Positions 3,311-63,806 of a DNA stretch of 64,000 nt are shown piece by piece. The stretch covers positions 421,487 to 485,486 of the forward strand of contig DAITMO010000001.1 of assembly GCA_036835125.1 (NCBI GenBank), in the 5' to 3' direction. The notes under the pieces are model-generated. The model saw only the letters and a list, made by a program, of their open reading frames with translations. It searched no databases and had not been told where the DNA came from. Within the stretch, counting starts at the first letter, position 1; each line of letters opens with the position of its first letter. The stretch comes from Patescibacteria group bacterium (lineage in GTDB: Bacteria > Patescibacteriota > Microgenomatia > UBA8517). Both the position numbers and the translations under genes were made by a program.

Positions 3311-4594
3311 ATGGATTTAATGGAAAAAATTACTTCACTTGCAAAACGACGTGGGTTCATTTTTCAGGGTAGTGAAATATATGGTGGTTATCAGGGATTT
3401 TGGGATTATGGACCTGCTGGAGTAGAACTAAAAAATAATATCAAAAGAGAGTGGTGGAAATATATGGTTTATAGTAGGGACAATATAGTTGGAATTGACG
3501 CTGCAATAATAATGAACCCTGTTACTTGGGAAAAGTCGGGACACCTTAAGGCTTTCACAGACCCCCTGGTTGAATGCAAGATTTGCCATAAAAGAGTAAG
3601 GGCTGATAATGAAGAAGCGGTTTTACAGCACGAAAAAACTCACAAAGAAGAAAAAGATATTTGGACAGAACCAAAAACTTTCAATCTTATGACAGAAGTT
3701 CTTTTGGGTACAACAGAACCAAAAGAAAAGTCCTACTTAAGAGGAGAAATAACGCAGGGTGTTTTTGTAAACTTTAAGAATGTTGTTGATTCAACCCGCG
3801 TAAAAGTTCCATTTGGTATTTCTCAGATTGGAAAGGCTTTTAGAAATGAAATCACTCCCGGGAATTTAACTTTCCGTTCTCGTGAATTTGAACAGATGGA
3901 ACTGGAATATTTCGTACGACCAGACGAAGAAGAGAGTAAAGACGTCTTTGAGTATTGGAAGGAAGAAAGAAAAAAATGGTATGAAAATCTTGGGATAAAT
4001 CCAGAGAAACTAAGATTCCATGATCATGAACCTGAAAAAAGAGCTCATTATGCTAAGTATGCAACTGATTTGGAATATGAAGCACCATTTGGGTGGAGTG
4101 AATTTGAAGGAATCCATCATAGAGGAGATTTTGACCTTGGGAACCATGGACTGAAATATAAAGATCCTGTAACAAACGAAGAATATACCCCATGGGTAAT
4201 AGAAACATCTGGGGGGGTTGATCGGGCAATGCTATTTTTCTTGATTGATGCGTACAAGGAAGACGGTGATAGAGTCTATCTAAAACTTCATCCCAAACTT
4301 GCTCCATATAAAGTTGCTGTATTTCCACTTCTTGCAAATAAACCAGAGCTTGTTGAAAAGGCTCGAGGTATTTATAAAGAACTTAAAAACGACTTTAGTG
4401 TTGTATGGGATGATAGGGGAAATATTGGGAAACGTTATTTTGCACAGGACGAAATAGGGACTCCATGGTGTATTACGGTAGATTTTGAATCACTTGATGA
4501 TAATACTGTTACTGTTCGTGACAGGGATAGTGGAAAACAAGAAAGAATGGGCATTGACAAACTCTCAGAATATTTTCAAAATAAACTAAGATGA
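3311..4594 (+). CDS. glyQS: glycine--tRNA ligase (single-chain alpha2 type)
   Basis: 427 aa; N-terminus GFIFQGSEIYGGYQGFWDYGPAGVELKNNIKREWW and class II aaRS core typical of dimeric GlyRS. Confidence 0.9.
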   Translation: MDLMEKITSLAKRRGFIFQGSEIYGGYQGFWDYGPAGVELKNNIKREWWKYMVYSRDNIVGIDAAIIMNPVTWEKSGHLKAFTDPLVECKICHKRVRADNEEAVLQHEKTHKEEKDIWTEPKTFNLMTEVLLGTTEPKEKSYLRGEITQGVFVNFKNVVDSTRVKVPFGISQIGKAFRNEITPGNLTFRSREFEQMELEYFVRPDEEESKDVFEYWKEERKKWYENLGINPEKLRFHDHEPEKRAHYAKYATDLEYEAPFGWSEFEGIHHRGDFDLGNHGLKYKDPVTNEEYTPWVIETSGGVDRAMLFFLIDAYKEDGDRVYLKLHPKLAPYKVAVFPLLANKPELVEKARGIYKELKNDFSVVWDDRGNIGKRYFAQDEIGTPWCITVDFESLDDNTVTVRDRDSGKQERMGIDKLSEYFQNKLR

Positions 4595-5262
4595 GTCCTA
4601 AGTTAAAGAAACTTCTACCTATTATTGCAGGAATATTGATAGTTGTAGTGGTAGTTGTTGCATTTTTAGTTAGGGGAAATAAATCAGTTGGTACCACTGA
4701 GGAAGAATCAGGAAGCACTCCAACCCTTTCTGAAGATCAATGGCCAGCAATTTCATTAACACCAACGGAAAAGTCTGACGTTTCAGGATCTCTTGGTAAA
4801 TGGCTTAATTTTAAAGTTGAGAAGATAAATGTTAAAAACGCTAAGAGTATGGATTACCTTTTGGTATATAACACTAGTGATGGAGGACAACAGGGAGTTC
4901 CTGGTTCTGTACAGCTTACAGGTACTAGTATAGAAAAGAAGCTTCTTTTGGGGTCTGAGTCCTCTGGTAAGTATCGATATGATGCTGGGGTAGAAACTGG
5001 AACAATGACAATTACTTTTAGAGATGCAAAAGGTAAATCTTTAGGGAAGCTTGCAACGGAATTTCACCTTCAGACTGGAGTAACTGAATTAACCTCAGTT
5101 GAAAAGACATTCAAATACACTCTTAATAAAGCTGCTAAGAATGTCTATTTCGTAACAATGAAAACTTTTGCCAAGCCAGAAGTACCAACTGTCATTTGGC
5201 AAGATGGTTATGGAATATTTGCTTCAGATGGTGAGGAACACGCAGGATCTGTAGCAGAATAA
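4591..5262 (+). CDS. hypothetical membrane-anchored protein
   Basis: 223 aa with N-terminal TM; start overlaps the glyQS stop (ATGA); no family recognised. Confidence 0.4.
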   Translation: MSPKLKKLLPIIAGILIVVVVVVAFLVRGNKSVGTTEEESGSTPTLSEDQWPAISLTPTEKSDVSGSLGKWLNFKVEKINVKNAKSMDYLLVYNTSDGGQQGVPGSVQLTGTSIEKKLLLGSESSGKYRYDAGVETGTMTITFRDAKGKSLGKLATEFHLQTGVTELTSVEKTFKYTLNKAAKNVYFVTMKTFAKPEVPTVIWQDGYGIFASDGEEHAGSVAE

Positions 5263-5340
5263 CCCCCATTAGATACTTCTTTTTGTTTTTACCTTTCCTT
5301 TTACCCGTGTAGCAATTTAGTGAAAATAGTGAAAAAGGGC

Positions 5341-37899: not shown

Positions 37900-37971
37900 G
37901 GACGACTGGCTCAGTGGTAGAGCGCTTCGTTCACATCGAAGAGGCCGTTGGTTCGAATCCAACGTCGTCCA
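37900..37971 (+). tRNA. tRNA-Val (anticodon CAC)
   Basis: Hand-folded cloverleaf: acceptor ggacgac/gtcgtcc, D-arm gctc-agtggta-gagc, anticodon arm cttcg-ttCACat-cgaag, T-arm gttgg-ttcgaat-ccaac, discriminator A, CCA not encoded; 72 nt. Confidence 0.85.
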
Positions 37972-49507: not shown

Positions 49508-49514
49508 TATCTTG

Positions 49515-49587
49515 AGCCGAGGGTGGGGATCGAACCCACTACCTGCGGTTTACGATACCGCCGCTCTACCAACTGAGCTACCTCGGC
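49515..49587 (-). tRNA. tRNA-Thr (anticodon CGU)
   Basis: Reverse complement folds as acceptor gccgagg/cctcggc, D-arm gctc-agttggta-gagc, anticodon arm gcggt-atCGTaa-accgc, T-arm gtggg-ttcgatc-cccac, discriminator U; 73 nt, no CCA. Confidence 0.85.
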
Positions 49588-49618
49588 AAGGTAGTCAATT
49601 ATATCATTTACTCTCTTT

Positions 49619-49633
49619 TGGAGCGGGTGAGCG
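49619..49633. repeat. 15-bp direct repeat identical to the 3' end of tRNA-Gly (att-like; partner at 51032..51046)
   Basis: tggagcgggtgagcg is identical at 49619-49633 and 51032-51046. Flanks diverge immediately, and the second copy is the 3' acceptor/CCA end of the minus-strand tRNA-Gly. Confidence 0.8.
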
Positions 49634-49960
49634 TAATTGGCTCGGACCTATTTAGCCAGGACGAGTATATCAAACAATATCTACTCGATCCCACCTTACC
49701 ACTTATTTTTAAAGTTAAAATAGGTCTTCGCTATTACATTACCAGTGACCTTATTTTACAGCTAAACGTATTCAAAGACTATCTTGAGAAAATTAATCCA
49801 TTTCTGTTTCGAGATATATTTGGTAAACATCGCAAAGATCGAAAAATATGCTAACATTTGGATACCGAATGATCCCTGTAGTGAAAGTACCTTATTTTAG
49901 GAAGCGAATGTTGACAGTTAATTACTGATCCATCTTGGCTACAGGGACCGAAATTTATTT

Positions 49961-50491
49961 ATGATCGAAACACACCCGTTTGGAAGTTTTGTTCCTCCTA
50001 AAGCAAAATATTTATTACTGGGAAGCTTTACGACCAAAGAAGCTTTTGATGACAAGAAAAAAGCAGCCTACGTTTGGTTTTACTCCAATGGCGGAAGAAA
50101 TCAGTTTTGGCCAATTTTACAAGAGATCTATGGAATTAAGCTGCAAACCAGGGATGAGATGCAACAACTTTTTACCGATTTGTATATGGCTCTGGCGGAT
50201 ATTATTTATCAGTGCGAAAGAAAGAAGACAAGTAATTTGGATATTAACCTAACAAATATTGTTTACGCGTTGGATGACATAACCAAGATTTTAAAAGAAA
50301 ATAAGATCGAAAAAATATTTTTTTCTAGTCGATTCGTCGAAAATACATTCCGACGAGTTTTTAAACATGTTGTAAACCAATATCCTAAGATAGAACTGAT
50401 TACATTACCAAGTCCATCTCCACGGTACGTCCAAATGACAAAGATTGAGAAAGTTAAACGGTATAAAGAATTATTACCCAAACTAAGGTAA
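49961..50491 (+). CDS. uracil-DNA glycosylase superfamily protein (Mug/TDG-like)
   Basis: YLLLGSFTTKEAF ... YSNGGRNQFWPIL (compare Mug GINPG ... NRFW) and C-terminal LPSPSPRY (UDG motif B, HPS/LPNPS-like). Confidence 0.5.
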   Translation: MIETHPFGSFVPPKAKYLLLGSFTTKEAFDDKKKAAYVWFYSNGGRNQFWPILQEIYGIKLQTRDEMQQLFTDLYMALADIIYQCERKKTSNLDINLTNIVYALDDITKILKENKIEKIFFSSRFVENTFRRVFKHVVNQYPKIELITLPSPSPRYVQMTKIEKVKRYKELLPKLR

Positions 50492-50980
50492 TACTTGCAA
50501 GACTTGATCTATAATTGACTCATTCTTGTCAAATATAAATTCTGCTTCGACATCTTTTCCTTCAAGAACTAAAGGTAACCAAAGTTTTTCGTCAGGCCAC
50601 ATCTTTTCAAACGGAATGTCATCTTTATTGAACCATTGTGGATTCATTTCTTCTGTTTCAACAGGATCGCCATTCCATTCACTGACCAAAAATACGCTAA
50701 CTTGTTGACCCCATTCTGGATTGTCGGGGAAATAGCACTTCAAAGTCGCTTTTTTGGTTAAGTTGCTAACAACAACATTAATTTCTTCTTGAGTCTCCCG
50801 TATCGCTGCATTTTCAATAGTTTCATCATCATTCTTCTTTCCGCCAATTCCATTAAACTTTCCAACAGCAAAACCACGCTTTTTCATAGCCAAAAGGACT
50901 TGATCTCCTTTAATTAGAAAACACAAAGTGGCTTGTCGAAGGGGATGTGTGAATGATTTTTTATAGTCAAAAATATTCAT
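50483..50980 (-). CDS. NUDIX hydrolase
   Basis: Nudix box GGKKNDDETIENAAIRETQEEINV (Gx5Ex7REUxEExGU); 165 aa. Confidence 0.8.
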   Translation of the reverse strand: MNIFDYKKSFTHPLRQATLCFLIKGDQVLLAMKKRGFAVGKFNGIGGKKNDDETIENAAIRETQEEINVVVSNLTKKATLKCYFPDNPEWGQQVSVFLVSEWNGDPVETEEMNPQWFNKDDIPFEKMWPDEKLWLPLVLEGKDVEAEFIFDKNESIIDQVLQVLP

Positions 50981-51031
50981 TTATGTATTTGTCAAGCAAC
51001 TTTGTGTACATTTCTGTAGGTAATTCTCATA

Positions 51032-51105
51032 TGGAGCGGGTGAGCGGAGTCGAACCGCCCTTTCTACCTTGGGAAGGTAGCGTTGAGCCGATCAACTACA
51101 CCCGC
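51032..51105 (-). tRNA. tRNA-Gly (anticodon CCC)
   Basis: Reverse complement: acceptor gcgggtg/cacccgc, D-arm gttg-atcggct-caac, anticodon arm ctacc-ttCCCaa-ggtag, T-arm ggcgg-ttcgact-ccgct, discriminator U, CCA encoded; 74 nt. Confidence 0.85.
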
Positions 51106-52462: not shown

Positions 52463-52491
52463 TTGCGACTGGTGGTATTTGTTGATAAAAT
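52463..52491 (+). promoter_or_regulatory. putative promoter for tRNA-Asp (TTGCGA-17-TAAAAT)
   Basis: TTGCGA at 52463-52468, 17-nt spacer, TAAAAT at 52486-52491, about 10 nt upstream of the tRNA 5' end. Confidence 0.4.
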
Positions 52492-52501
52492 ACACTCTTG
52501 A

Positions 52502-52782
52502 GAGGTCGTAGCTCAATTGGTTAGAGCGCTTCCCTGTATAAAGTGGCAGCTCTTAAGAGTAATCTTGAGATGATAATCAGGCTAATTCGGGAAATGCCTT
52601 TGAAAGAAGGAGAATCCCGAGCTAAATCTACGCTCAATTAAAAAATGAACGTAGTAAATGTGTAGAGACTATATACCTGATATCCTACCTGGTTCACCCA
52701 GGGGATAATGAGATAGTCCACCTTTTCAGAAATGAAAAGTTTTGCACGGAAGAGGTTGCGAGTTCGAGTCTCGTCGACCCCG
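52502..52782 (+). tRNA. tRNA-Asp (anticodon GUC) interrupted by a group I intron between nt 35 and 36
   Basis: 5' exon 52502-52537: acceptor gaggtcg, D-arm gctc-aattggtta-gagc, anticodon stem cttcc, then loop nt ctgt. 3' exon 52745-52782: cac-ggaag (stem partner)-aggtt-gcgag-ttcgagt-ctcgt-cgacccc-G. Spliced loop is CUGUCAC (as in E. coli tRNA-Asp), discriminator G; one A-C mismatch at 2:71. Confidence 0.8.
52538..52744 (+). ncRNA. group I self-splicing intron (207 nt) in the tRNA-Asp anticodon loop
   Basis: Internal guide GUGGCAG (52543-52549) pairs with 3' exon CAC (P10) and 5' exon CUGU (P1, U.G at the 5' splice site); terminal omega-G at 52744. Conserved P (aattcgggaaa), Q (aatcccgagc), R (gtgtagagactata) and S (gagatagtcc) elements, with gacta/tagtc forming P7. 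Confidence 0.8.
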
Positions 52783-54267
52783 CCCAGAGTGACGGTACTC
52801 AGGTTTTAGGAGTACATCATAGGGCATTTTGAAGCTAAAAACAGGGTTTTTGTTATCCAAATAGAAGTTCTCACCGATATCCATAAGTAATTTTCTCTTC
52901 TCTAAAATTTTATCGCTTTCCATAACACTTCGTGCGTAAAAAGCGTTATCTAGAAATTCTTCAGCTAGTTCCAACCAATTTTCTTCTGAATTTTTGACAT
53001 CCCTAATTAATCCCTCGATTCTAGCCTGTTCACTTAAAGATATATTCTTTTGGATCATAAATTCATCTCTAGTAAGTTCATTATTTGCACGCATTTCAAT
53101 TAATCTACTTATTTTGGTCTGAATCATTCTTTCTTCCTTATTCAGGTGTTCAATTTGTTCATTGTTTCTATTCGATTGATCCTTATTTTTAGCTTTTAAA
53201 AGTTTCACTCCAAGCTCCCAAACATCTTTATCAATCGATATCTTGGAGATTTTATATAACAATCTACCTTCAAAATTTTCCAATCTAACTGGTGATTGAT
53301 CACAATTTCCTTTACGTTTTGTGCAGTGTAAATAAACATATCTGACTGTTCGGTTGGTTTCTTTGTAATATTTAGTTTTGAATGTTGTGGTTATGGCGGA
53401 ATTACATGATGGACATTTTAAAAGGCCATTATAGCTCATTTTATTCCAAATATTCACTTGCGGCTTTGATCGGTCTTTTAACTTTTCTTGTGCGGTATCA
53501 AACAGCGTCTTAGTGATTAGTGGATCATAATTCCCTTTGTAAAGTTGCCCTTTATATTTGAAATAACCATAATAGGATGGATTTGTAAGCATTCGGTGAA
53601 TTTGTTCTTTACAAAGTTTTTCACCATTCCTAGCAGTTAAACCTTGTGAATATAAAAAATTCGCAATGTTTGTAAGCGAATACTGACCAGTAGCTTCCAT
53701 TTCAAAAATTTTTTTAATCAACGGAGCTTCAAATCCGTCTGGAATTAGATTCTTTTTACCTTTCTCGCCGACCATTTTATAACCAAAGAACGAATAACCA
53801 GGATATTCTCCTCGTTCAACCTTGTGCTTTAAACCTCTCAAAACATTTTGGCTCAATACTCGAGAATATTGATTAGCCATTCCAAAATGAATTTGAAGTA
53901 TTAGGTGGTCTGAGTCTGGATTATAAATTTCTCCCGTGGGTGTTCTTATTTCTTTTAAAACACCATCTTGCAATAACTGAAGTATTTCACCCCCTTCTTT
54001 TGGATTTCTACTTAACCTATCTGGTTTCCAGGTAAGTATTGCATCAGCCTTATTAGATTTAATAAGTTCTAACATTTCATTAAACACGACACGTTTATTT
54101 GGTTTGTAGGCAGATTTACTTTCTTGTAAACGGTAAACAATGGGCAAAGATTCTTTCAATGCATATTCTTCACATTCTAAATTCTGGTCGTTTATTGAAG
54201 CCACTTGTTTCTCTTTTGCTTCAGAGGACTTCCTGGAATATCTAATATATCTTAATTTGTTATTCAT
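52726..54267 (-). CDS. large serine recombinase (integrase)
   Basis: N-terminal resolvase catalytic domain (RYIRYSRKSSEAKEKQVASINDQ ... ILTWKPDRLSRN), recombinase domain and Cys4 zinc ribbon (CPSCNS ... LHCTKRKGNC); 513 aa. The last ~19 codons are the antisense of the tRNA-Asp 3' exon. Confidence 0.85.
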   Translation of the reverse strand: MNNKLRYIRYSRKSSEAKEKQVASINDQNLECEEYALKESLPIVYRLQESKSAYKPNKRVVFNEMLELIKSNKADAILTWKPDRLSRNPKEGGEILQLLQDGVLKEIRTPTGEIYNPDSDHLILQIHFGMANQYSRVLSQNVLRGLKHKVERGEYPGYSFFGYKMVGEKGKKNLIPDGFEAPLIKKIFEMEATGQYSLTNIANFLYSQGLTARNGEKLCKEQIHRMLTNPSYYGYFKYKGQLYKGNYDPLITKTLFDTAQEKLKDRSKPQVNIWNKMSYNGLLKCPSCNSAITTTFKTKYYKETNRTVRYVYLHCTKRKGNCDQSPVRLENFEGRLLYKISKISIDKDVWELGVKLLKAKNKDQSNRNNEQIEHLNKEERMIQTKISRLIEMRANNELTRDEFMIQKNISLSEQARIEGLIRDVKNSEENWLELAEEFLDNAFYARSVMESDKILEKRKLLMDIGENFYLDNKNPVFSFKMPYDVLLKPEYRHSGRGRRDSNSQPLPCKTFHF

Positions 54268-54308
54268 AATTAAAAACCTTATTCTAATCTTAAAAGAAAT
54301 GTAAAAGA

Positions 54309-54749
54309 CTAGGATATTTTGATCTCATCATCTTTCTTATCTGATAAATTGAACATTATTTTTGACAACTCGTCTTCTGATTTTAAATAGTATATTGCCA
54401 CATTTGGCAATGACTTTTTTGTTAGGATATTTGCTGTATTTACCTTGAACATGTCCAAGTTTTTTATATACGAGACTCCATTATTTTCCTCCAACAACCC
54501 CTTTTTTATTAATAATTTTCTCAACCTATGAACTTTACTATAACTACAACCCCAAAGTTCTGAGAACTCCTCATCACTTTTAAGTATAGCTCTATAATAC
54601 TTATGTTTTCTATCCCAGTCTGCTTGCATTGAAAACAAAATGTATGCACTTAATTCTATTAAATTCACGACCCCTCTACTGAGTAGATATTGTATACATC
54701 TCAATATTACAATATAACCAGAGTATTTTGTAGAGTATTCAATATTCAT
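54309..54749 (-). CDS. hypothetical protein with putative winged-helix DNA-binding segment
   Basis: 146 aa; WGCSYSKVHRLRKLLIKKGLLEE resembles an HTH recognition helix; no family assigned. Confidence 0.3.
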   Translation of the reverse strand: MNIEYSTKYSGYIVILRCIQYLLSRGVVNLIELSAYILFSMQADWDRKHKYYRAILKSDEEFSELWGCSYSKVHRLRKLLIKKGLLEENNGVSYIKNLDMFKVNTANILTKKSLPNVAIYYLKSEDELSKIMFNLSDKKDDEIKIS

Positions 54750-54766
54750 ATTAAATTTGTATATCT

Positions 54767-55000
54767 TTACCTAAAAATTATTGTTTTTAATCTTCCAATT
54801 GATTCATAGTATGTTCTGGCGTTAACTAACAATTCTCCAAAAAAGTATTTTTTTGATATGCTTTCGCAAAGACCTATATTTTCAAAAACAAAAAAACAAA
54901 TGTTTTTGATACGTTCTATTTTTGAGATTTGTATGCCATAAGTAATCAAGGCGGCTGCTTCTGCCAAATCTCGTGTTTTGTATTCTTCAGAATTTCTCAT
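54767..55000 (-). CDS. hypothetical small protein
   Basis: 77-aa ORF immediately upstream of 54309..54749 on the same strand. Confidence 0.3.
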   Translation of the reverse strand: MRNSEEYKTRDLAEAAALITYGIQISKIERIKNICFFVFENIGLCESISKKYFFGELLVNARTYYESIGRLKTIIFR

Positions 55001-55185
55001 ATTGCATTTTCTTTATAAATCTAAAAGCATTTTCTATATATGAGGTAAGATTTACGGCTATTTGTTTAATTTCCAAATCAGACAGTTGCCTTTTATATCG
55101 AGGTTCAAAAACTTTTTTTATGTTTAATTTTAGTGTGTTATCAAGCCATGTAATTTCCATATCCATTGATTAAAGATTTGCCAAC

Positions 55186-55211
55186 AAAAAACCAGGCCAA
55201 GCAAGCCTGGT
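55186..55211 (-). terminator. rho-independent terminator (minus strand)
   Basis: Stem accaggc/gcctggt with loop caagcaa, followed on the minus strand by TTTTTT (plus strand: aaaaaaccaggccaagcaagcctggt). Confidence 0.45.
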
Positions 55212-55607
55212 ATTACAATCCTTAATTAGCCTAATGGCTAAAACCTAAACAGGTTATGGATATGGCTTTCGACAATACTATTGTCTGTAGCTTCCAAAAA
55301 TAATTTTAGTTAGGTGTTTACTAATTTGTCAACACGACGCAATGTAATAAATGTGGAACCTAAAAACTGTAACGAGGGTACTGGTAGTTCAATCTTAAGG
55401 ATTATTCATTTTGTTAAAAGTCATTGCATACACAGAGTGGAGGGGATACTACTTGCTAGTGCTTGTTAATATTTGTCAAGTTCTTGCATAGTCATTTATT
55501 TAAATATGTTATGCTCTTATTGTTATTGCTGGTTGGAAGGCAATAACTGGCAGAATCCTGTGCCTAATCCATCGCAAAAAGGGTATAGTTCCCATACACA
55601 TAAAGCC

Positions 55608-56225
55608 CTAGTTACTTTGTGGTCTTACTGCACAGGAAGTTTGATACCATATGGGGGTAAATTTTCCTTTATTGTAAGTGTATCTAGTGACTCTATATTC
55701 ACCATTGTTCCAATCAATAGTCTCATGTAGAAAGAAACCATTACTATCTCCGGCTTTTGATATATTCACACTGGCTCCCTGGTATTTAAAAACTATGAAT
55801 CCATCCTTAACAATCACTACATCATTTGGAGTGTGATTCATTGCAGTATTTGCTGTTAAAATTCTTTCATCTATTTGATCACTATCAACATCAAACTTGG
55901 TTTCTGTCCAAGGATTGATACTTTCAGGGGTTGTATAAAATTCACCTCCAAATGGTTCTTTTGTCGAATCAAATTTTTCTTTAAGAGAAATGATTTTTTT
56001 ATTTGAAGTAACCAGAGAAGGAGGATATGAAGCAATTACTTCATATAGCACATCCGAAAGATATTCTTTAGGAAATTCTTTTCCTACATAATGTGGACAT
56101 ATAATTTGAGTAAAGTTTGGTTGTCTAAGATTTTTTGACCTATCAAATATTGTGTTACTAACTAATAAATAAGTTCCAATTATCGAGACTAATGATACTG
56201 CGATGTGGGAGAGTAACTTTCTCAT
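55608..56225 (-). CDS. hypothetical secreted protein
   Basis: 205 aa with N-terminal signal/TM (MRKLLSHIAVSLVSIIGTYLLVSN); overlaps the upstream ORF by 4 nt. Confidence 0.4.
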   Translation of the reverse strand: MRKLLSHIAVSLVSIIGTYLLVSNTIFDRSKNLRQPNFTQIICPHYVGKEFPKEYLSDVLYEVIASYPPSLVTSNKKIISLKEKFDSTKEPFGGEFYTTPESINPWTETKFDVDSDQIDERILTANTAMNHTPNDVVIVKDGFIVFKYQGASVNISKAGDSNGFFLHETIDWNNGEYRVTRYTYNKGKFTPIWYQTSCAVRPQSN

Positions 56226-56437
56226 TTACAAGGTTTATAAACATTAAACCTTTCACATCCAATTCCAGTAAAGTTATTTATCTCTGTTTCCCAGCCACCT
56301 TTAGTGTATGAGAACCTGTTCAACCAAAGCAACAGAATTTGGAGCAAGACAATAATGATTAGAATCACTCTCGCGAAGTATTTTTGATCAACTATTTTTT
56401 TTATTATTTGTAAAAACTTATTCAAAGATTTTTTCAT
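56222..56437 (-). CDS. hypothetical small membrane protein
   Basis: 71 aa with one TM; translationally coupled between the S26 peptidase gene and the secreted-protein gene. Confidence 0.35.
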   Translation of the reverse strand: MKKSLNKFLQIIKKIVDQKYFARVILIIIVLLQILLLWLNRFSYTKGGWETEINNFTGIGCERFNVYKPCK

Positions 56438-57141
56438 TTTGAAAATAATTTAAACATAAATTTGCCAATAATATTTTGTTTTTTGACGACTTGGATATCG
56501 CCACCTCTTTTGTCAAAAAGTACAAGATATTCATCATCTTTCAGTGAAACATTTTGTACCCTATTTTCAGCCCACTGAATCCAATCTGCATATGGTTCAC
56601 TAAGACTATTACCATTAACTACAAGCTCACCTGGGGCAATCTGGAGTGTTTCATTTGGCAAACCCACTATTCTACCCATCCTCTCACTATTGCTAGATAT
56701 GTAGTCAATAACATCGCCTCTCTTCGGAGGGTTTATCTTATAAATAAATTTATTTACCAAGTATGTATCATCATGCACATACAATGGTTCCATTGAGAAT
56801 CCATCAACAATGGCATAGCGAAAGAGACTGGCCCATAAAATCACAATAACAATAAGGCTTGCTACAAGAATTCCGACAATCCTTATTATTTTCCAGATTA
56901 GTTTTTTAGAATGAAGCCAGATTATCATCCAAATAGGAAAACTAAATATACAGGTGAGTAAAGAAATAATTAATGGTAAAGATATCCATAAAGGAGCCGT
57001 ATTAGAAATAAAACCTATTCTAAAAACATCCAGGATAAGAAAAATTACAAATACTATAAACGAATACAGAGAGATTTTCTTTAACAAATTATTTTCATAT
57101 AATTTGTTCTTATTTAGTCCAGGCACGGATTTTTTATCCAT
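56434..57141 (-). CDS. S26 family signal peptidase (SipW/TraF-like) with extended N-terminal multi-TM region
   Basis: IVDGFSMEPLYVHDDTYLVNKF ... PKRGDVIDY ... GLPNETLQIAPGELVVNGN (S26 Ser/Lys dyad context), preceded by ~100 aa with 3 TM helices. Confidence 0.65.
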   Translation of the reverse strand: MDKKSVPGLNKNKLYENNLLKKISLYSFIVFVIFLILDVFRIGFISNTAPLWISLPLIISLLTCIFSFPIWMIIWLHSKKLIWKIIRIVGILVASLIVIVILWASLFRYAIVDGFSMEPLYVHDDTYLVNKFIYKINPPKRGDVIDYISSNSERMGRIVGLPNETLQIAPGELVVNGNSLSEPYADWIQWAENRVQNVSLKDDEYLVLFDKRGGDIQVVKKQNIIGKFMFKLFSK

Positions 57142-57238
57142 ATGAAAGTAATAATTAATCAGATTTTACGCCCTTATTGTAAATAATTGCAAGATATATC
57201 TGGTAAATATATAGCTGGTAATTTATTAACCTTTAGAA

Positions 57239-57451
57239 ATGAATTACCAAACAATATACAGAAAGCTAGGTGAAAGAATTGAATGGTTCAGAAAAGAGAA
57301 AGGAATGACACAAGAGGAGTTGGCAGAAAAAGCTGGTTTACATAGGGCATATTTTTGGGATATAGAAAGGGGTAGAAATATCTCAGTAAGAACAGCGTAT
57401 TTGATATCCAGGGCGTTAGAGATTAAACTATCCACACTTTTCGATTTTTAG
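57239..57451 (+). CDS. XRE-family helix-turn-helix transcriptional regulator
   Basis: 70 aa; MTQEELAEKAGLHRAYFWDIERG is a canonical Cro/C1-type HTH; divergent from the S26 operon. Confidence 0.8.
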   Translation: MNYQTIYRKLGERIEWFRKEKGMTQEELAEKAGLHRAYFWDIERGRNISVRTAYLISRALEIKLSTLFDF

Positions 57452-57521
57452 TTAAAATATTACTTTAATTTTGCATGTTTGCATCTTTGTTATAAAATAA
57501 CTTAGTTCTGTCTAAAACTGA

Positions 57522-58511
57522 ATGACCAAAGCTCAATTAGAAACAAGTATTAAGACATTGGCTGAATTAAGAGATTCTAACGAGATTATCTTTTATTTGA
57601 CTAGTGACAAAAAACCTCCAGAATTGTTTGCAACGGCGATTGCAACAGATACGTTAGCTATATTTGAAAAACATCTATCAAAGATTGGTCAGAAAAATAA
57701 AATTTCACTTTTTCTTAATACAACTGGAGGTAGTCTCGAGGCACCATGGCCGATAGTGTCTTTAATACGTGAGTATTGCAAAGAGCTTGAAGTAATTGTA
57801 CCTTTTCAGGCCTTGAGTGCGGGTACACTTATTTGTTTGGGTGCTGATAAAATTGTTATGACTCCATCAAGTTTTTTAAGCCCAATTGATCCGAGAGGTT
57901 CTTACAGACTTGGTGCTGAAACGAAAAGTATTCAAATAGAGGATGTTGTTGGTTTTATTGACTTTGCTAAGAATAAAGTTGGACTATCGGAACAGGGTTC
58001 TTTAGCCGAGGTTATGAAACTACTATCATCAGAGATACCTCCTTCGATATTGGGATCGGTGAACAGAACCCATTCACTTATAAGAATGCTTGCTGGAAAA
58101 ATGTTGAAATTGCATAAAACAAAACTGGATGATAATCAAATTCGACAGATTGTAGAAAATCTAACTGAAAAGCTATATTCACACCAATATTTAATTGGTA
58201 GAAAAGAAGCGAAAACCGTAGTTGGTTTCCATGGCATAATTCATAATGCGACCTCAGATGAAGAAAAACTAATAAAACAATTAATGAAATATTTTTCTGA
58301 CGAGATGGAATTATCCAAAAAATTTGACCCTGCCGAATATTTACAAGGTGATGCTGTTGAAAATACAATTCGAGTTTCTAGGGCTATTATAAAAAGTTCT
58401 GCTGGTCAGGACACTTATACAACTGATTATAGAATACAGAAAATACAAGATCCGGCTGCTCCCAAACCATTTAATGTAAGTTGGTCTGACAAAGAATGGA
58501 TAGAAAAATAA
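57522..58511 (+). CDS. ClpP-fold serine peptidase of the SDH (serine dehydrogenase proteinase)/S49-like family
   Basis: LFLNTTGGSLEAPWPIVSLIREY (compare ClpP INSPGG) and VPFQALSAGTLICLGADKIVM (nucleophile Ser in LSAG, as in SDH-family AKSAATLIALGADEIVM); 329 aa. Confidence 0.45.
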   Translation: MTKAQLETSIKTLAELRDSNEIIFYLTSDKKPPELFATAIATDTLAIFEKHLSKIGQKNKISLFLNTTGGSLEAPWPIVSLIREYCKELEVIVPFQALSAGTLICLGADKIVMTPSSFLSPIDPRGSYRLGAETKSIQIEDVVGFIDFAKNKVGLSEQGSLAEVMKLLSSEIPPSILGSVNRTHSLIRMLAGKMLKLHKTKLDDNQIRQIVENLTEKLYSHQYLIGRKEAKTVVGFHGIIHNATSDEEKLIKQLMKYFSDEMELSKKFDPAEYLQGDAVENTIRVSRAIIKSSAGQDTYTTDYRIQKIQDPAAPKPFNVSWSDKEWIEK

Positions 58512-58567
58512 GTATTTATGAAGATGACAAAACTGGTTTGAAAAGGGGGTGAAAATATAAAAGATAT

Positions 58568-58810
58568 ATGACAAACAACGACAAATTTGTAAAAACTACC
58601 AGCTATACTGGACAGTTACCAAACACGGGTATTGTTCAAGAAAATACAGCAAAAACCTCGTCTGAACGTGACTATATAGTAATTGATCAACAAGAGCCAT
58701 TTTCAAGCCATCAGTTTTTAACAGTTGATAATAATGATGAAGTAGATGAGGAGATAATAAAAGAAATATCTAATATAAATTACAAACCGATATTATCGTC
58801 GGCTTTATAA
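58568..58810 (+). CDS. hypothetical small acidic protein
   Basis: 80-aa ORF following the protease gene; acidic C-terminus (DNNDEVDEEIIKE). Confidence 0.3.
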   Translation: MTNNDKFVKTTSYTGQLPNTGIVQENTAKTSSERDYIVIDQQEPFSSHQFLTVDNNDEVDEEIIKEISNINYKPILSSAL

Positions 58811-58817
58811 TCCATGA

Positions 58818-59369
58818 ATGTATACGGCAATAAATCCTCAAGAAATTCTTCAAGGAGATTTGATAGTTGATTATGAATTTATTGCACCACCAACAGATGA
58901 ATTGTTGGTGGTTGAGAGGAACCAAAGTGGTGTTTTGATTACTAAACCAGTTTCACAGGTGGTTAAGCCATATATAGGTGGTAAGATAGCCGTCGTAGCT
59001 AATTCTTTCGTTTCAGATGCTATGGTGATATCACAGTCGTGCGATATCCAACGGCGAGATTATGTGCATTTATGTCCAGTACATAAATTAGGAAACCTAA
59101 TTACAGAATTAAGTTCTAAAGGATTTGAACAAAAAAGAATAGATGGCGTTTTGGACGGCTTGAGAAAAAATACAATAAATTATTATTTTTATCTACCACC
59201 AGGCTCAATAAACGAGATTCCTATCGAAGAAAGCTATGTAGATTTACAGTTTGTGGGAATGGCACCTCTTTTAACACTTGGGACTTATTCTAGAACCCTA
59301 TCACTTACTGATTTAGGCAGACATCGTCTTACATTCAAGCTAACTAATTTGTATAGTAGACCTATTTAG
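58818..59369 (+). CDS. hypothetical protein
   Basis: 183-aa ORF, no motif; followed by a clear terminator. Confidence 0.35.
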   Translation: MYTAINPQEILQGDLIVDYEFIAPPTDELLVVERNQSGVLITKPVSQVVKPYIGGKIAVVANSFVSDAMVISQSCDIQRRDYVHLCPVHKLGNLITELSSKGFEQKRIDGVLDGLRKNTINYYFYLPPGSINEIPIEESYVDLQFVGMAPLLTLGTYSRTLSLTDLGRHRLTFKLTNLYSRPI

Positions 59370-59466
59370 AACAGTGAAAAAGTTCTGGAGATAGTCAACT
59401 AAAGCCCGCTTGTATATTGTAATTTTGACTTCCATCTTCAGTTGTAGTAGTATGCACTTATAATTT

Positions 59467-59499
59467 CAGGCTAAATGCAGCCTGATTTTTTGTTTTTTT
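59467..59499 (+). terminator. rho-independent terminator
   Basis: caggct-aaatgc-agcctg hairpin followed by aTTTTTTgTTTTTTT. Confidence 0.6.
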
Positions 59500-59640
59500 A
59501 GGCTTAAGCTATCTTGTACTTTAAAAGTTGCGGATTATTAGAAAAAACTCCTTCTTAAGTGGGTAGTTTTCTGGATATTACGTATCTGGAAAAATACCCA
59601 CTTGGGTAGAAAATTTTTTTTCGGAAAAGGAGTGTGTCAA

Positions 59641-60093
59641 ATGAAAACAAAAACAATCGGTTACATAATTTGGACGATTGTAGTTATCGCTGCCCTTATC
59701 TTCGTTGGTATTCAAGTTACGAAGGACCGAGTGTACATCGGGACCAAGCATGAATTCAGCACCGACAGGACGATTCAAATTGATGCTAATAAAGTAACCT
59801 TTCAGGCGGCATCGTCTGATTTCTTCGTTCTTCGAAAGGTGAGTGGTGAAACCATCATAGGTTCTCCCGCACCCGCCCCGCTAAGATGGTCAAGTGATTT
59901 GTATTTCACTGCTGGACCACAAGAAGTTCCCGGCGGCACATGGTTATTCGCGTATGGAACTGCTACAGTGAATATCACGAGCGACAGACCTGTAACTGTA
60001 CGATTGATCCAAGCAGATCAGGGAAGGTATTGGGTTTTAATAATAATGTCTGCTTTTCTCGTGTGGATATTAGGCATCTTTTTAAATCCCTAA
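59641..60093 (+). CDS. hypothetical membrane-anchored/secreted protein
   Basis: N-terminal TM (IGYIIWTIVVIAALIFVGI) and C-terminal TM. AAGGAG RBS 8 nt upstream of the ATG at 59641, preferred over the tracked 59602 start. Confidence 0.4.
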   Translation: MKTKTIGYIIWTIVVIAALIFVGIQVTKDRVYIGTKHEFSTDRTIQIDANKVTFQAASSDFFVLRKVSGETIIGSPAPAPLRWSSDLYFTAGPQEVPGGTWLFAYGTATVNITSDRPVTVRLIQADQGRYWVLIIMSAFLVWILGIFLNP

Positions 60094-60255
60094 TGAGTAC
60101 ACCCGTAACAATGTCCAAGAAACAGACCCTCGGTAGAGAAATTATTAGGCTAATATAGCTAATTTTTTTTATCAATACCGAGGGTGTTTTCAATTATTGA
60201 AGATAAAAATTCTAAATACATAATAGTAAGCTTACCTAGTGTTATATAATGGTTT

Positions 60256-61968
60256 ATGCCTCAAAAACCATTAACTAATCTCCAAATTGCAGAATTACTT
60301 CGTGATGTAGCAGCTTCGTATCAATTAAAAGACGATCGAAAATATAAATTTCAAATAATTGCATATGAACGTGCCTCAGATGCAGTTGAGCACGCTACAA
60401 GTGAACTAAAAGACCTTTGGGATGATGGGAAATTGGAAGAAGTTCCTGGTATTGGACCCTCAATTGCGGAGCATTTAGGAGAATTATTCAAAAATGGGTA
60501 TTCCAAACATTTTGAGAAATTAATGGAAGGTATTCCGAAAGAAGCATTTAAGCTAATGGAACTGCCTGGAATTGGAATAAAAACTGCAATGAAGCTTTTA
60601 AAAGAAGGTAATCCAAAAGAAGTTAAGGCAAAACTTATTGAAGTAGAAAAGAAAAACAAAAAGGTTAAAAGACACCTTTTGCCATATGCTGCAATGGTAG
60701 CAAATGAAGTAATGGATTATCTTTTGACTTGTCCTGAAACATTGCGTGTAGACCCACTAGGAAGCCTTAGACGCCAAGCTTCAACCATTGGGGATATAGA
60801 CATCGCTGTAGCCACAAATGACCCAGGAACAGTCTTGGAATATTTCACTAAATATCCAAAATCAAATAAAACTATTGATATAGGAGACACTTCAGCCTCA
60901 ATCTTGCTACCAGGGGATATTAGAGTTGACCTTAAAGCACAACCTTTAAAGACTTATGGATCACTTCTGCAACATTTTACAGGTTCAAAACACCATAATA
61001 TTGCACTTCGTGAATACTCACTAAAAAAAGGCCTATCACTATCTGAATATGGTATTAAAAATATCTCAACTGGTAAGATGTCGAAATTTAGCGATGAAAA
61101 AGATTTCTATGAGTATTTGGGGTTGGAATATATAGAACCTGAATTAAGAGAAGACACTGGTGAAATTGAGGCTGCAAAAGAACATAAACTTCCAAAACTA
61201 GTAAATATTTCTGACATTAAAGGTGATCTACAGATTCATTCAGATTTTGATATAGAAACTAGTCATGATCTTGGAGAAAGCTCTATGGAAGAAATTATTG
61301 ATAAAGGAAACGAACTGGGATATGAATATTTAGCTTTCACTGAACATAATCCAAGTCAAAAAGGTCACAGTCAAAAAGATATTGTGGAAATACTAAAAAG
61401 AAAGCGTGAAAAGATTGATAAACTAAATTACTCAATTAAAGAAAAGGGTAATAATAGTATACATAAAGTATTTAACAGCCTTGAGATAGATATTCTTTCA
61501 GATGGTTTAATTCCTGTACCAGACGCGGGATTAGATTTATTAGATTTTGCCTTAGTTTCAATTCACTCAAGTTTTAATTTGTCTCGTGACCAAATGACAA
61601 ATAGAGTTTTAAAAGCATTAACACACCCAAAGTGTAAAATCTTTGCACACCCAACAGCCAGGAAATTAAATGAACGTGAGGGTGTGGAACTTGATTGGCC
61701 AAAAATTTTTGATTTTTGTTTGAAGAATGATAAATGGATAGAGATAGATGCAGACCCCATGCGTCTTGATTTACCAGACAATTTAGTTCGTGAGGCAGTG
61801 AAAAGTGGTGTGAAACTAACAATAGGTACGGATGCCCATCATAAAGACGGACTGAACAATATGATATTTGGAGTGTCTGTGGCAAGACGAGGATGGGCAG
61901 ATGCTCATGATATAATAAATACTTGTAATTTAGATGAGTTTGAAAAAGAATTAAAAGGAGGTGAATAA
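60256..61968 (+). CDS. DNA polymerase X family protein with C-terminal PHP domain
   Basis: N-terminal HhH/Pol-beta-like region (IGPSIAEHL ... GIGIKTAMKLL), nucleotidyltransferase GDIDIAV, C-terminal PHP His-rich motifs (DLQIHSDFD ... HNPS ... IHSS). Confidence 0.85.
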   Translation: MPQKPLTNLQIAELLRDVAASYQLKDDRKYKFQIIAYERASDAVEHATSELKDLWDDGKLEEVPGIGPSIAEHLGELFKNGYSKHFEKLMEGIPKEAFKLMELPGIGIKTAMKLLKEGNPKEVKAKLIEVEKKNKKVKRHLLPYAAMVANEVMDYLLTCPETLRVDPLGSLRRQASTIGDIDIAVATNDPGTVLEYFTKYPKSNKTIDIGDTSASILLPGDIRVDLKAQPLKTYGSLLQHFTGSKHHNIALREYSLKKGLSLSEYGIKNISTGKMSKFSDEKDFYEYLGLEYIEPELREDTGEIEAAKEHKLPKLVNISDIKGDLQIHSDFDIETSHDLGESSMEEIIDKGNELGYEYLAFTEHNPSQKGHSQKDIVEILKRKREKIDKLNYSIKEKGNNSIHKVFNSLEIDILSDGLIPVPDAGLDLLDFALVSIHSSFNLSRDQMTNRVLKALTHPKCKIFAHPTARKLNEREGVELDWPKIFDFCLKNDKWIEIDADPMRLDLPDNLVREAVKSGVKLTIGTDAHHKDGLNNMIFGVSVARRGWADAHDIINTCNLDEFEKELKGGE

Positions 61969-61971
61969 AAT

Positions 61972-62526
61972 ATGATTTATGTACTAATTGCTATAGCTAT
62001 CGTAATACTTTTTTGGGTTATATCTACTTACAATTTTTTTGTAAGTACAAAAACAAGAGTTGAAGCTTCTACCCAGGAAATAGGAAATCAATTAAAAAGA
62101 CAATCTGAGCTTATTCCAAATCTTGAGTCATCAGTAAAAGGTTATCTTACACACGAAAAAGGAATACTAGAAATGCTTTCTGAAGCCAGAAAGATGACAG
62201 CAAAAGGACAAGATGCAAGTAAAAAGATTTCAGAATTGTTACCAAAGCTTCAAGTTGTAGTTGAAAGTAATCCAGAGCTTAAAGGAGCTAGTGTTGTAAC
62301 AAATTTGATGGATGAGCTTAGAGATACAAGCGATAAAGTAATGTATGCTAGGCGTCTCCTTATAGATCTAACAGCTGACTATAATGTTAAAATTATTACT
62401 TTTCCAAGCAAAATTGTTGCCAATGCGTTTCATTTTGGCAAATTGAAGGGTTTGGAAACGGACGAAAATGGAGATTTTCTTAAAGTAAAAAGTGAAGAAA
62501 TGAAAACTCCAAAAGTAAATTTGTGA
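61972..62526 (+). CDS. lemA: LemA family protein
   Basis: N-terminal TM followed by the LemA domain; 184 aa; immediately upstream of htpX. Confidence 0.75.
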   Translation: MIYVLIAIAIVILFWVISTYNFFVSTKTRVEASTQEIGNQLKRQSELIPNLESSVKGYLTHEKGILEMLSEARKMTAKGQDASKKISELLPKLQVVVESNPELKGASVVTNLMDELRDTSDKVMYARRLLIDLTADYNVKIITFPSKIVANAFHFGKLKGLETDENGDFLKVKSEEMKTPKVNL

Positions 62527-62527
62527 G

Positions 62528-63451
62528 ATGAAAAACATTTACGAAGCTCAAAGGTCAAACAAGATTAAGAGTGCTACTGTTGTGGTGCTTTTTGTCTTGT
62601 TTGTAGCAATATCAACATATTTTATATCTAAAGCATTTGGGGTATATCTTGGTTACGAACCAAGTGAACTTGGGTTTGTGGGGATTGCACTTATTGTTTC
62701 TGGAATATCTAGCTTTGTAAGCTATTATTTCTCAGATCAAATAATTCTTGGAATTTCAGGAGCAAGAGAGGCAGATAGAAAACGTGATTTTCTTTTTTAC
62801 ACAGTTTCCGAAAACCTAAGTATTGGAGCAGGTATCCCAAAGCCAAGACTTTATGTAATTGCTGACTCGGCTCCAAACGCATTTGCTACAGGAAGAGATC
62901 CAAAACACGCAGTAATTTGTGCTACGACAGGACTCCTTGAGAAACTAAACAGAACAGAGCTTGAGGGAGTTGTTGCCCATGAAATGAGCCATATAAAAAA
63001 TTATGACATAAGGCTTATGTCTATTGTTTCTGTTATGGTGGGGTTAATCGCACTTTTGGGGGATTGGTTTTTAAGAGTTTCTTTTAGGGGGAAAAGCAGA
63101 GATGATAACAATGGTGCTGCTGGAATTTTTATTCTTGTAGGGCTTATTTTTGCAATACTTTCACCTATTATTGGACAGCTAATTCAACTTGCAATAAGTA
63201 GAAGACGTGAATTTTTGGCAGATAATGGTTCAGTTTCAATTACCAGGCAGCCTCAAGGGCTTATCTCAGCTTTAGAAAAAATTTCAAACGATAATGAACC
63301 ACTTGAAGTGGCAAATAAGGCGACAGCTCATCTTTACATAGTTAGTCCCTTTAAAAACAAGAATAAAAACAACAGAAGTACTTTTGCGAGTTTATTCAAT
63401 ACACACCCTCCTGTTTCAGAAAGAATTAAGGCATTAAAACTCATGGCTTAA
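62528..63451 (+). CDS. htpX: zinc metalloprotease HtpX (M48 family)
   Basis: HEMSHI (HExxH) zinc motif, 4 TM segments, typical lemA-htpX pairing. Confidence 0.85.
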   Translation: MKNIYEAQRSNKIKSATVVVLFVLFVAISTYFISKAFGVYLGYEPSELGFVGIALIVSGISSFVSYYFSDQIILGISGAREADRKRDFLFYTVSENLSIGAGIPKPRLYVIADSAPNAFATGRDPKHAVICATTGLLEKLNRTELEGVVAHEMSHIKNYDIRLMSIVSVMVGLIALLGDWFLRVSFRGKSRDDNNGAAGIFILVGLIFAILSPIIGQLIQLAISRRREFLADNGSVSITRQPQGLISALEKISNDNEPLEVANKATAHLYIVSPFKNKNKNNRSTFASLFNTHPPVSERIKALKLMA

Positions 63452-63494
63452 ACTCTTGTTTTGATATCCTTTTGAGGTTATCATTACAAAAGAT

Positions 63495-63806
63495 ATGGCC
63501 AAACTTACAGATAAGGAAGTGCTCCATGTAGCAAAGCTTGCAAAACTTGAATTAAGTAAAGAAGAAATTGAAAAATTTACTCTTCAATTATCAAGTGTTG
63601 TTGATTATTTTGGGGACTTGAATGAAGTTGATACAAAAGACATAGAACCAACTAGTCAAACAACTGGACTCGAAAACGTTAGAAGAGAAGATTTGGTAAA
63701 AAGTGATGAATCTATAAACCAGGAAGAAGCTCTTTCAAATACAGACAAATCTCATAATGGTTACTTTAAAGTCGATGCAATATTAGGAGAAAGGAGTGAT
63801 AAATGA
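63495..63806 (+). CDS. gatC: Asp-tRNA(Asn)/Glu-tRNA(Gln) amidotransferase subunit C
   Basis: ~100 aa with the characteristic GatC start (MAKLTDKEVLHVAKLAKLEL ...), followed by gatA. Confidence 0.8.
   Translation: MAKLTDKEVLHVAKLAKLELSKEEIEKFTLQLSSVVDYFGDLNEVDTKDIEPTSQTTGLENVRREDLVKSDESINQEEALSNTDKSHNGYFKVDAILGERSDK

Follow-up and report, generated by a model that had tools for sequence, protein, structure and literature searches.

A 207-nt group I intron at position 35/36 of a tRNA-Asp(GUC) gene from a Microgenomatia-class Patescibacterium

The 64-kb stretch of Patescibacterial DNA that was analyzed here (the window; G+C content, 33.7%) contains at positions 52502-52782 of the forward strand a real tRNA-Asp(GUC) gene that is interrupted by a group I intron between anticodon positions 35 and 36. 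The 5′ exon (52502..52537, +), GAGGTCGTAGCTCAATTGGTTAGAGCGCTTCCCTGT, provides the 5′ strand of the acceptor stem, the D arm, the 5′ strand of the anticodon stem, and the loop bases C32, U33, G34, and U35, and ends in ...CCCUGU. It is followed by the 207-nt intron (52538..52744, +), which ends in G, and by the 3′ exon (52745..52782, +), CACGGAAGAGGTTGCGAGTTCGAGTCTCGTCGACCCCG, which starts with CACGG and supplies C36, A37, and C38, the 3′ strand of the anticodon stem, the variable loop, the T arm, the 3′ strand of the acceptor stem, and the discriminator G73, with CCA not encoded. When introns were allowed, ARAGORN called a tRNA-Asp(gtc) whose 207-nt intron had, to the base, the boundaries proposed in an initial annotation that had been made from the DNA letters. 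The spliced exons folded into a 76-nt tRNA-Asp cloverleaf with a GUC anticodon and G73. The group I identity that had been claimed for the intervening sequence was borne out by an Rfam scan of the whole window, in which RF00028 (group I intron) matched positions 52522-52739 (+) with 75.2 bits (gathering score, 50 bits; E = 2.8e-17); this match spans the full model (positions 1-253) and is the sole non-tRNA Rfam match in the window. The predicted folding energy of the intron RNA was -59.3 kcal/mol, as compared with a mean of -40.4 kcal/mol for shuffled sequences (z = -5.08).

At default settings, ARAGORN did not report the split tRNA-Asp anywhere in the window, and called only tRNA-Val(CAC), tRNA-Thr(CGU), and tRNA-Gly(CCC). 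A search with blastn-short detected no second copy of either tRNA-Asp exon in the 64-kb window, and the locus is the only tRNA-Asp there, as had been proposed. A promoter-like site upstream of the gene (52463-52491, 9/12 matches) was no better than those in shuffled sequence. The tRNA-Thr(CGU) and tRNA-Gly(CCC) genes (49514-51105, -) were located within 3 kb upstream of tRNA-Asp among NUDIX and LysM genes, and tRNA-Val(CAC) was found at 37900; none of these three genes is interrupted. Genes for PolX, LemA, an M48 peptidase, and GatC occupy positions 60256-63806. In relatives that belong to Woesebacteria and Microgenomates, genes of the PolX, LemA, and M48 type are found no more than about 1 kb away from tRNA-Asp, and the PolX, LemA, and M48 proteins of the window share 57-74% amino-acid identity with those encoded beside tRNA-Asp in such metagenome-assembled genomes (MAGs). 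The closest relatives of the tRNA and its intron, as well as of the syntenic genes, were found in Woesebacteria, Microgenomates, and Daviesbacteria MAGs. All known occurrences of the sequence are in metagenome assemblies (ENA ERZ724081, ERZ724083, ERZ724084, and ERZ724086; Logan SRR3330207 and SRR3330211), and seven independently assembled contigs are 100% identical over the locus.

The intron can be folded into the group I helices P1 to P10, and all elements described below are on the forward strand. The internal guide sequence GUGGCAG, which was read from the sequence and confirms the guide and pairings put forward in the initial annotation, lies at 52543-52549. Its GCAG part (52546-52549) pairs with the exon end CUGU (52534-52537) to form P1, in which U35 (52537) faces G52546 as a U·G pair at the 5′ splice site, and its GUG part (52543-52545) forms P10 with the CAC that opens the 3′ exon (52745-52747). 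P2 is an 8-bp hairpin with a GUAA tetraloop (52551-52570), and P3 joins AUCAGG (52576-52581) to CCUGAU (52676-52681) in a pseudoknot with P7; these two strands are also paired in the minimum free energy (MFE) fold. P4, formed by UCGGGA (52587-52592) and UCCCGA (52615-52620), corresponds to the P and Q elements and encloses P5, a hairpin of the sequence CCUUU-GAAA-GAAGG (52597-52610). The region of P4 and P5 (52587-52620) was supported by the Rfam alignment and by RNAalifold, with 96% of the alignment cells paired. P6/P6a is a hairpin (CUACG...CGUAG, 52628-52654) that varies in length among relatives. The P, Q, R, and S strings that had been picked out by eye were all recovered, at 52585-52595, 52613-52622, 52660-52673, and 52710-52719, respectively.

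The R element contains J6/7 and the 5′ strand of P7 (together 52660-52672) and agrees with the Rfam core consensus AGACUA, whereas the 3′ strand of P7 is contained in the S element (gagatagtcc) and is likewise part of the Rfam core. P7 itself, which had also been anticipated, is formed by GACUAU (52667-52672) and AUAGUC (52713-52718). P8 is a single hairpin (AUCC..CCUGG-UUCAC-CCAGG GGAU, 52682-52706), and no P7.1/P7.2 is present between the 3′ strand of P3 and P8 in the drawn fold. P9 is a 7-bp hairpin with a GAAA tetraloop (52722-52739). The hairpins P2, P8, and P9 all appear in the MFE fold, in which P2, P5, P8, and P9, the peripheral helices, show complete pairing and GNRA loops. The predicted terminal G was found at 52744, where it marks the 3′ splice site (omega-G) and is followed by CACG in the window gene, as it is in each of the 26 relatives. 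An intron of 207 nt has no room for an open reading frame or a homing endonuclease gene.

These relatives were sought in a collection of species-representative genomes with a pattern composed of the omega-G and the 3′ exon. This search yielded 26 further split tRNA-Asp loci (L003-L028), nearly all of which were from Patescibacteria and most of which carried the labels Woesebacteria, Daviesbacteria, Microgenomates, Paceibacteria, Yanofskybacteria, Nomurabacteria, Lloydbacteria, or Saccharibacteria. All 26 loci have the arrangement CUGU|intron...G|CACG together with a GCAGC guide, and their introns range from 184 to 269 nt. Two sub-lineages can be told apart by the intron core, namely, a Microgenomatia type with the motifs GGCUAAUUCGGG...GUGUAGAGACUAUAUACC and a Paceibacteria type with GGGAUAWCGGUGAAGG...CCGUAGAGACUAGAUACC. 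The window intron belongs to the Microgenomatia type and shares 71-75% identity with its nine nearest loci. Of 20 related loci searched, only seven reached the RF00028 gathering threshold (six of the Microgenomatia type and one of the Paceibacteria type), in agreement with the published observation that RF00028 alone misses some Patescibacteria tRNA introns (Nakagawa et al., mSystems 2026, PMC13011429).

Eleven Microgenomatia-type introns were aligned with MAFFT for the analysis of covariation. Without further guidance, RNAalifold recovered P1, P2, P4, P5, P6, P7, P8, and P9, and in the hand-drawn P1-P9 structure, which includes the P3 pseudoknot, 94.8% of the cells were paired, as compared with 31-44% when the partners were slid against each other. 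Both sides had changed in 22 of the 47 pairs, and none of 500 shuffles reached the observed values. Covariation was carried by P2 (compensatory changes in 5/7 counted pairs), P3 (double changes in two pairs), P5, P6 (4/4 counted pairs), P8 (4/4 counted basal pairs), and P9 (5/7 pairs). The four pairs of P1, including the U·G pair, and both strands of P7 with the J6/7 segment were invariant in 11/11 introns; because P1, P7, and most of P4 do not vary, these helices provide no covariation evidence in either direction. Three long-range helices proposed by RNAalifold (an exon-exon helix in columns 1-4/262-265, GGC-GCU in columns 53-55/96-98, and a pairing of GUGUAG with the 3′ end in columns 154-159/256-261) were dropped because they do not vary and are in conflict with P3 and P7.

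Introns at this site have been described before. A survey of 95 complete Patescibacteria genomes reported 15 tRNA-Asn(GUU) and three tRNA-Asp(GUC) group I introns at position 35/36, a site that had first come to light through the tFind tool, and gave intron lengths in Patescibacteria tRNAs from 184 nt upwards (Nakagawa et al., 2026). One Asn gene and one Asp gene of this set underwent precise GTP-dependent self-splicing in vitro, the ligated tRNAs were sequenced, and exon ligation was lost when the omega-G of the tRNA-Asp gene was mutated to C (Nakagawa et al., 2026). The experimentally validated tRNA-Asp is that of Candidatus Woesebacteria GW2011_GWF1_31_35 (GCA_001029755.1/CP011214.1), which is identical to L007 among the present loci and scored 82 bits with RF00028. 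Its exons and those in the window agree at 72 of 74 positions (97%; 35 of 36 in the 5′ exon and 37 of 38 in the 3′ exon), and the exon junction CCUGU|CACGG is the same in the window and in the published tRNA-Asp genes. The two introns also have in common the 35/36 site, the guide logic of GGCAG with CUGU, GNRA loops on P2 and P9, and the lack of an open reading frame. The core that consists of P3, P4, P7, R, and S is almost identical, with the near-identical blocks ggctaattcggg, aatcccgagctaaatc, gtaaatgtgtagagactatatacct, and agatagtcc, and the peripheral stems are divergent but compensated. On the other hand, the Woesebacteria intron is shorter (196 nt vs. 207 nt), and the overall identity is about 60-75%. 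The window intron differs from it in the length and sequence of P6 and P8 and in its P5, whose longer 5-bp stem with a GAAA loop is common only to one further locus (L020). Moreover, GCA_001029755.1 has G2-C71 and a C as the first intron base, whereas the window gene has A2×C71 and an A, and the two also differ in species and local gene order.

The identity of the window intron to the three published tRNA-Asp introns was 60-64% for the two from Microgenomatia and 43% for the one from Paceibacteria. The tRNA-Asn(GUU) introns at 35/36 are from the same phylum, follow the same exon end (...CUGU), use a GCAGC guide of a related kind, and are likewise capable of self-splicing in vitro (Nakagawa et al., 2026). 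However, they are about 205-606 nt in length with extra elements between the 3′ strand of P3 and P8, and some of the Patescibacteria copies carry HNH homing endonuclease genes, in contrast to the single P8 hairpin and the lack of an open reading frame in the window intron. The initial annotation had regarded tRNA-Asp 35/36 as an unusual host site; this view was overtaken by the published 35/36 introns of tRNA-Asp and tRNA-Asn and by the self-splicing of a tRNA-Asp with 97% identical exons (Nakagawa et al., 2026). Judged by these sequence comparisons, the window intron is a new species-level member of a family that was described and experimentally validated in the literature of 2025-2026. The integrase island that follows the gene and the A2×C71 mismatch in its acceptor stem are the only features for which no published description was found.

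The window intron also resembles the classical introns in Azoarcus tRNA-Ile(CAU), Anabaena/Nostoc tRNA-Leu(UAA), and Agrobacterium tRNA-Arg(CCU), which are likewise small, free of open reading frames, located in the anticodon loop, and built on a P1-P9 architecture with tetraloops on peripheral helices. The Azoarcus intron is about 205 nt in length and belongs to subgroup IC, and the classical bacterial tRNA introns are assigned to IC3. The Nostoc tRNA-Leu intron is 249 nt long, as compared with 207 nt in the window. The host tRNAs and the sites of the classical introns (33/34, 34/35, and 36/37) differ from tRNA-Asp 35/36, as do the core sequences, for example GUGUAGAGACUAUA/AUAGUCC in the window intron. 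The "Azoarcus-type" label that had been attached to the window intron lacks support in the published covariance-model classification, which places 25 of the 28 introns at 35/36 in IA and leaves IC without any tRNA intron from Patescibacteria (Nakagawa et al., 2026). In the accessible rows of Table S5 of that study, Asn 35/36 introns from Cyanobacteriota, Bipolaricaulota, and Nitrospirota are labeled IA1 or IA2, and most tRNA introns from other phyla are labeled IC3. The helix inventory of the window intron, as drawn, resembles that of compact introns without P7.1/P7.2, which is a likeness and not a subgroup assignment.

Downstream of the tRNA, the likeness of the window to its relatives stops about 7 nt past G73. 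The following region of ~7.4 kb (roughly 52783-60250), which separates tRNA-Asp from PolX, LemA, M48, and GatC, has no counterpart at the syntenic site in the Microgenomatia relatives. It begins with a 513-aa large serine recombinase of the phage type that contains Resolvase, Recombinase, and zinc-ribbon domains and matched a PHROG annotated as integrase (E = 3e-69). The region also encodes an XRE-type repressor, a ClpP/SDH-type protease, an S26-like peptidase, a DUF5659 protein, a protein with a weak DnaD-like or replication-initiator match, and several open reading frames without a family match. The region probably represents a small integrative element or the remnant of a prophage in the Patescibacterium. 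Direct repeats of the att type or a displaced tRNA 3′ end were sought at the far side of the island, where only short AT-rich chance matches were found, and the absence of such repeats is as expected for serine recombinases.

The integrase reading frame (52726-54267, -) runs antisense over the whole 3′ exon, overlaps the tRNA by 57 nt, and stops within P9 of the intron. A similar convergent arrangement was identified in a Nomurabacteria contig (L015), in which an integrase gene (3526-5091, +) overlaps its own split tRNA-Asp (5031-5310) by 61 nt. The two integrases are 28% identical, and in both cases the frame leaves the element, crosses the 3′ exon in antisense, and stops inside the intron. 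The overlaps are in different reading phases; therefore, the overlap itself is not a conserved coding sequence. It probably represents read-through across the attachment junction, and since the integrase frame runs out of the element into the tRNA and the intron, integration would change the C-terminus of the integrase. The recurrence of this arrangement suggests that the 3′ end of tRNA-Asp may serve as a recurrent attachment site, with the integrase frame crossing the junction. The crossover is predicted to fall no more than about 10 nt 3′ of G73.

The best explanation of the locus is that a Microgenomatia-class (Woesebacteria-like) Patescibacterium has a functional tRNA-Asp(GUC) gene with a 207-nt self-splicing intron between U35 and C36 (probability about 0.9). 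After transcription of the precursor, the guide GCAG would pair with the exon end CUGU to form P1 and thereby place the U35·G pair at the splice site, and an exogenous guanosine docked in the P7 pocket would attack after U35. The GUG segment would then pair with CAC of the 3′ exon to form P10, with the terminal G (52744) occupying the guanosine site, and the freed 3′-OH of U35 would attack after G52744, which would join the exons as ...CCUGU|CACGG... and restore the GUC anticodon. The intron is real and very probably functional, and we infer that splicing takes place at this locus and that the genome has no other tRNA-Asp. The dependence of aspartate decoding on splicing, which had been put forward in the initial annotation, is plausible.

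The alternative that best withstands the evidence, although an improbable one, is that the window gene is a decaying or poorly functional copy and that aspartate is decoded via another tRNA-Asp outside the window. The gene does deviate from its relatives. The acceptor pair 2:71 is an A×C mismatch (52503 and 52780) that is unique among the 27 genes, as this pair is G-C or C-G in all 26 relatives, with G or C at position 2 in 26/26 and A in the window gene. Position 69 is C (G4-C69), whereas the closest relatives have U (G4·U69). The first base of the intron is A, whereas 10 of 11 relatives have C, which adds one pair to P1; this extension is therefore lost in the window intron, and its shortened P1 has four exon pairs only. 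In addition, an integrase-bearing island directly adjoins the 3′ end of the tRNA. In E. coli, G2-C71 contributes to Asp identity. A single A·C mismatch in an acceptor stem is usually tolerated. A2×C71 and C69 are not assembly errors because the bases are identical in seven independent contigs, and the fixation of the sequence across independent assemblies also argues against decay. Furthermore, the catalytic core has kept all its elements, which do not differ from those in functional relatives, and the peripheral helices with their GNRA loops have kept their full pairing. [quoted passage not shown] As a weaker speculation, A2×C71 and C69, which are both unique to the window tRNA, could be scars of integrase-type recombination events.

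A still less probable reading shifts the same 207 nt two bases upstream, so that the gene would be a tRNA-Ala(UGC) with an intron at 33/34 and the exons ...CCCU|UGCACGG.... ARAGORN called 4 of the 26 homologs Ala(tgc) and accepted the shifted splice product of the window gene as a tRNA-Ala(tgc). The same ambiguity in ARAGORN and tFind calls has been noted, and such genes have been misannotated as Thr or Ala through a two-base shift of the boundary (Nakagawa et al., 2026). However, the shifted intron would have U instead of G as its last base, which group I chemistry does not allow, and the pairing of the guide GCAG with CUGU puts the U·G pair at U35. Ala identity needs G3·U70 and normally A73, whereas the tRNA body of the window gene has G3-C70 and G73. 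The ligated product of the homolog with 97% identical exons was sequenced and proved to be an Asp tRNA joined at 35/36 (Nakagawa et al., 2026). The Ala reading was rejected on these grounds. A chance or low-complexity match to group I introns between two tRNA-like fragments, for which only the low G+C content of the AT-rich window speaks, was dismissed as next to impossible in view of the RF00028 E-value, the covariation of the helices across 11 homologs, and a gene structure that is kept in 26 genomes.

With respect to the intron, the locus is of mainly confirmatory value. Default tRNA finders miss this gene, and thus a genome bin would wrongly seem to lack tRNA-Asp; the annotation gap for such split tRNAs has already been raised (Nakagawa et al., 2026). 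The 26 further species-level genomes extend the published count of three tRNA-Asp cases among complete genomes (Nakagawa et al., 2026). With lengths down to 184 nt, these introns form a natural series of very small ribozymes, and the neighboring island provides a lead on the mobile elements of Patescibacteria, which have been little studied. Three of the MAGs with a Microgenomatia-type split tRNA-Asp (L003, L020, and L027; TPA assemblies) are labeled "uncultured Gammaproteobacteria", and L003 also has PolX/LemA synteny to the window. These labels look wrong and seem to stem from binning.
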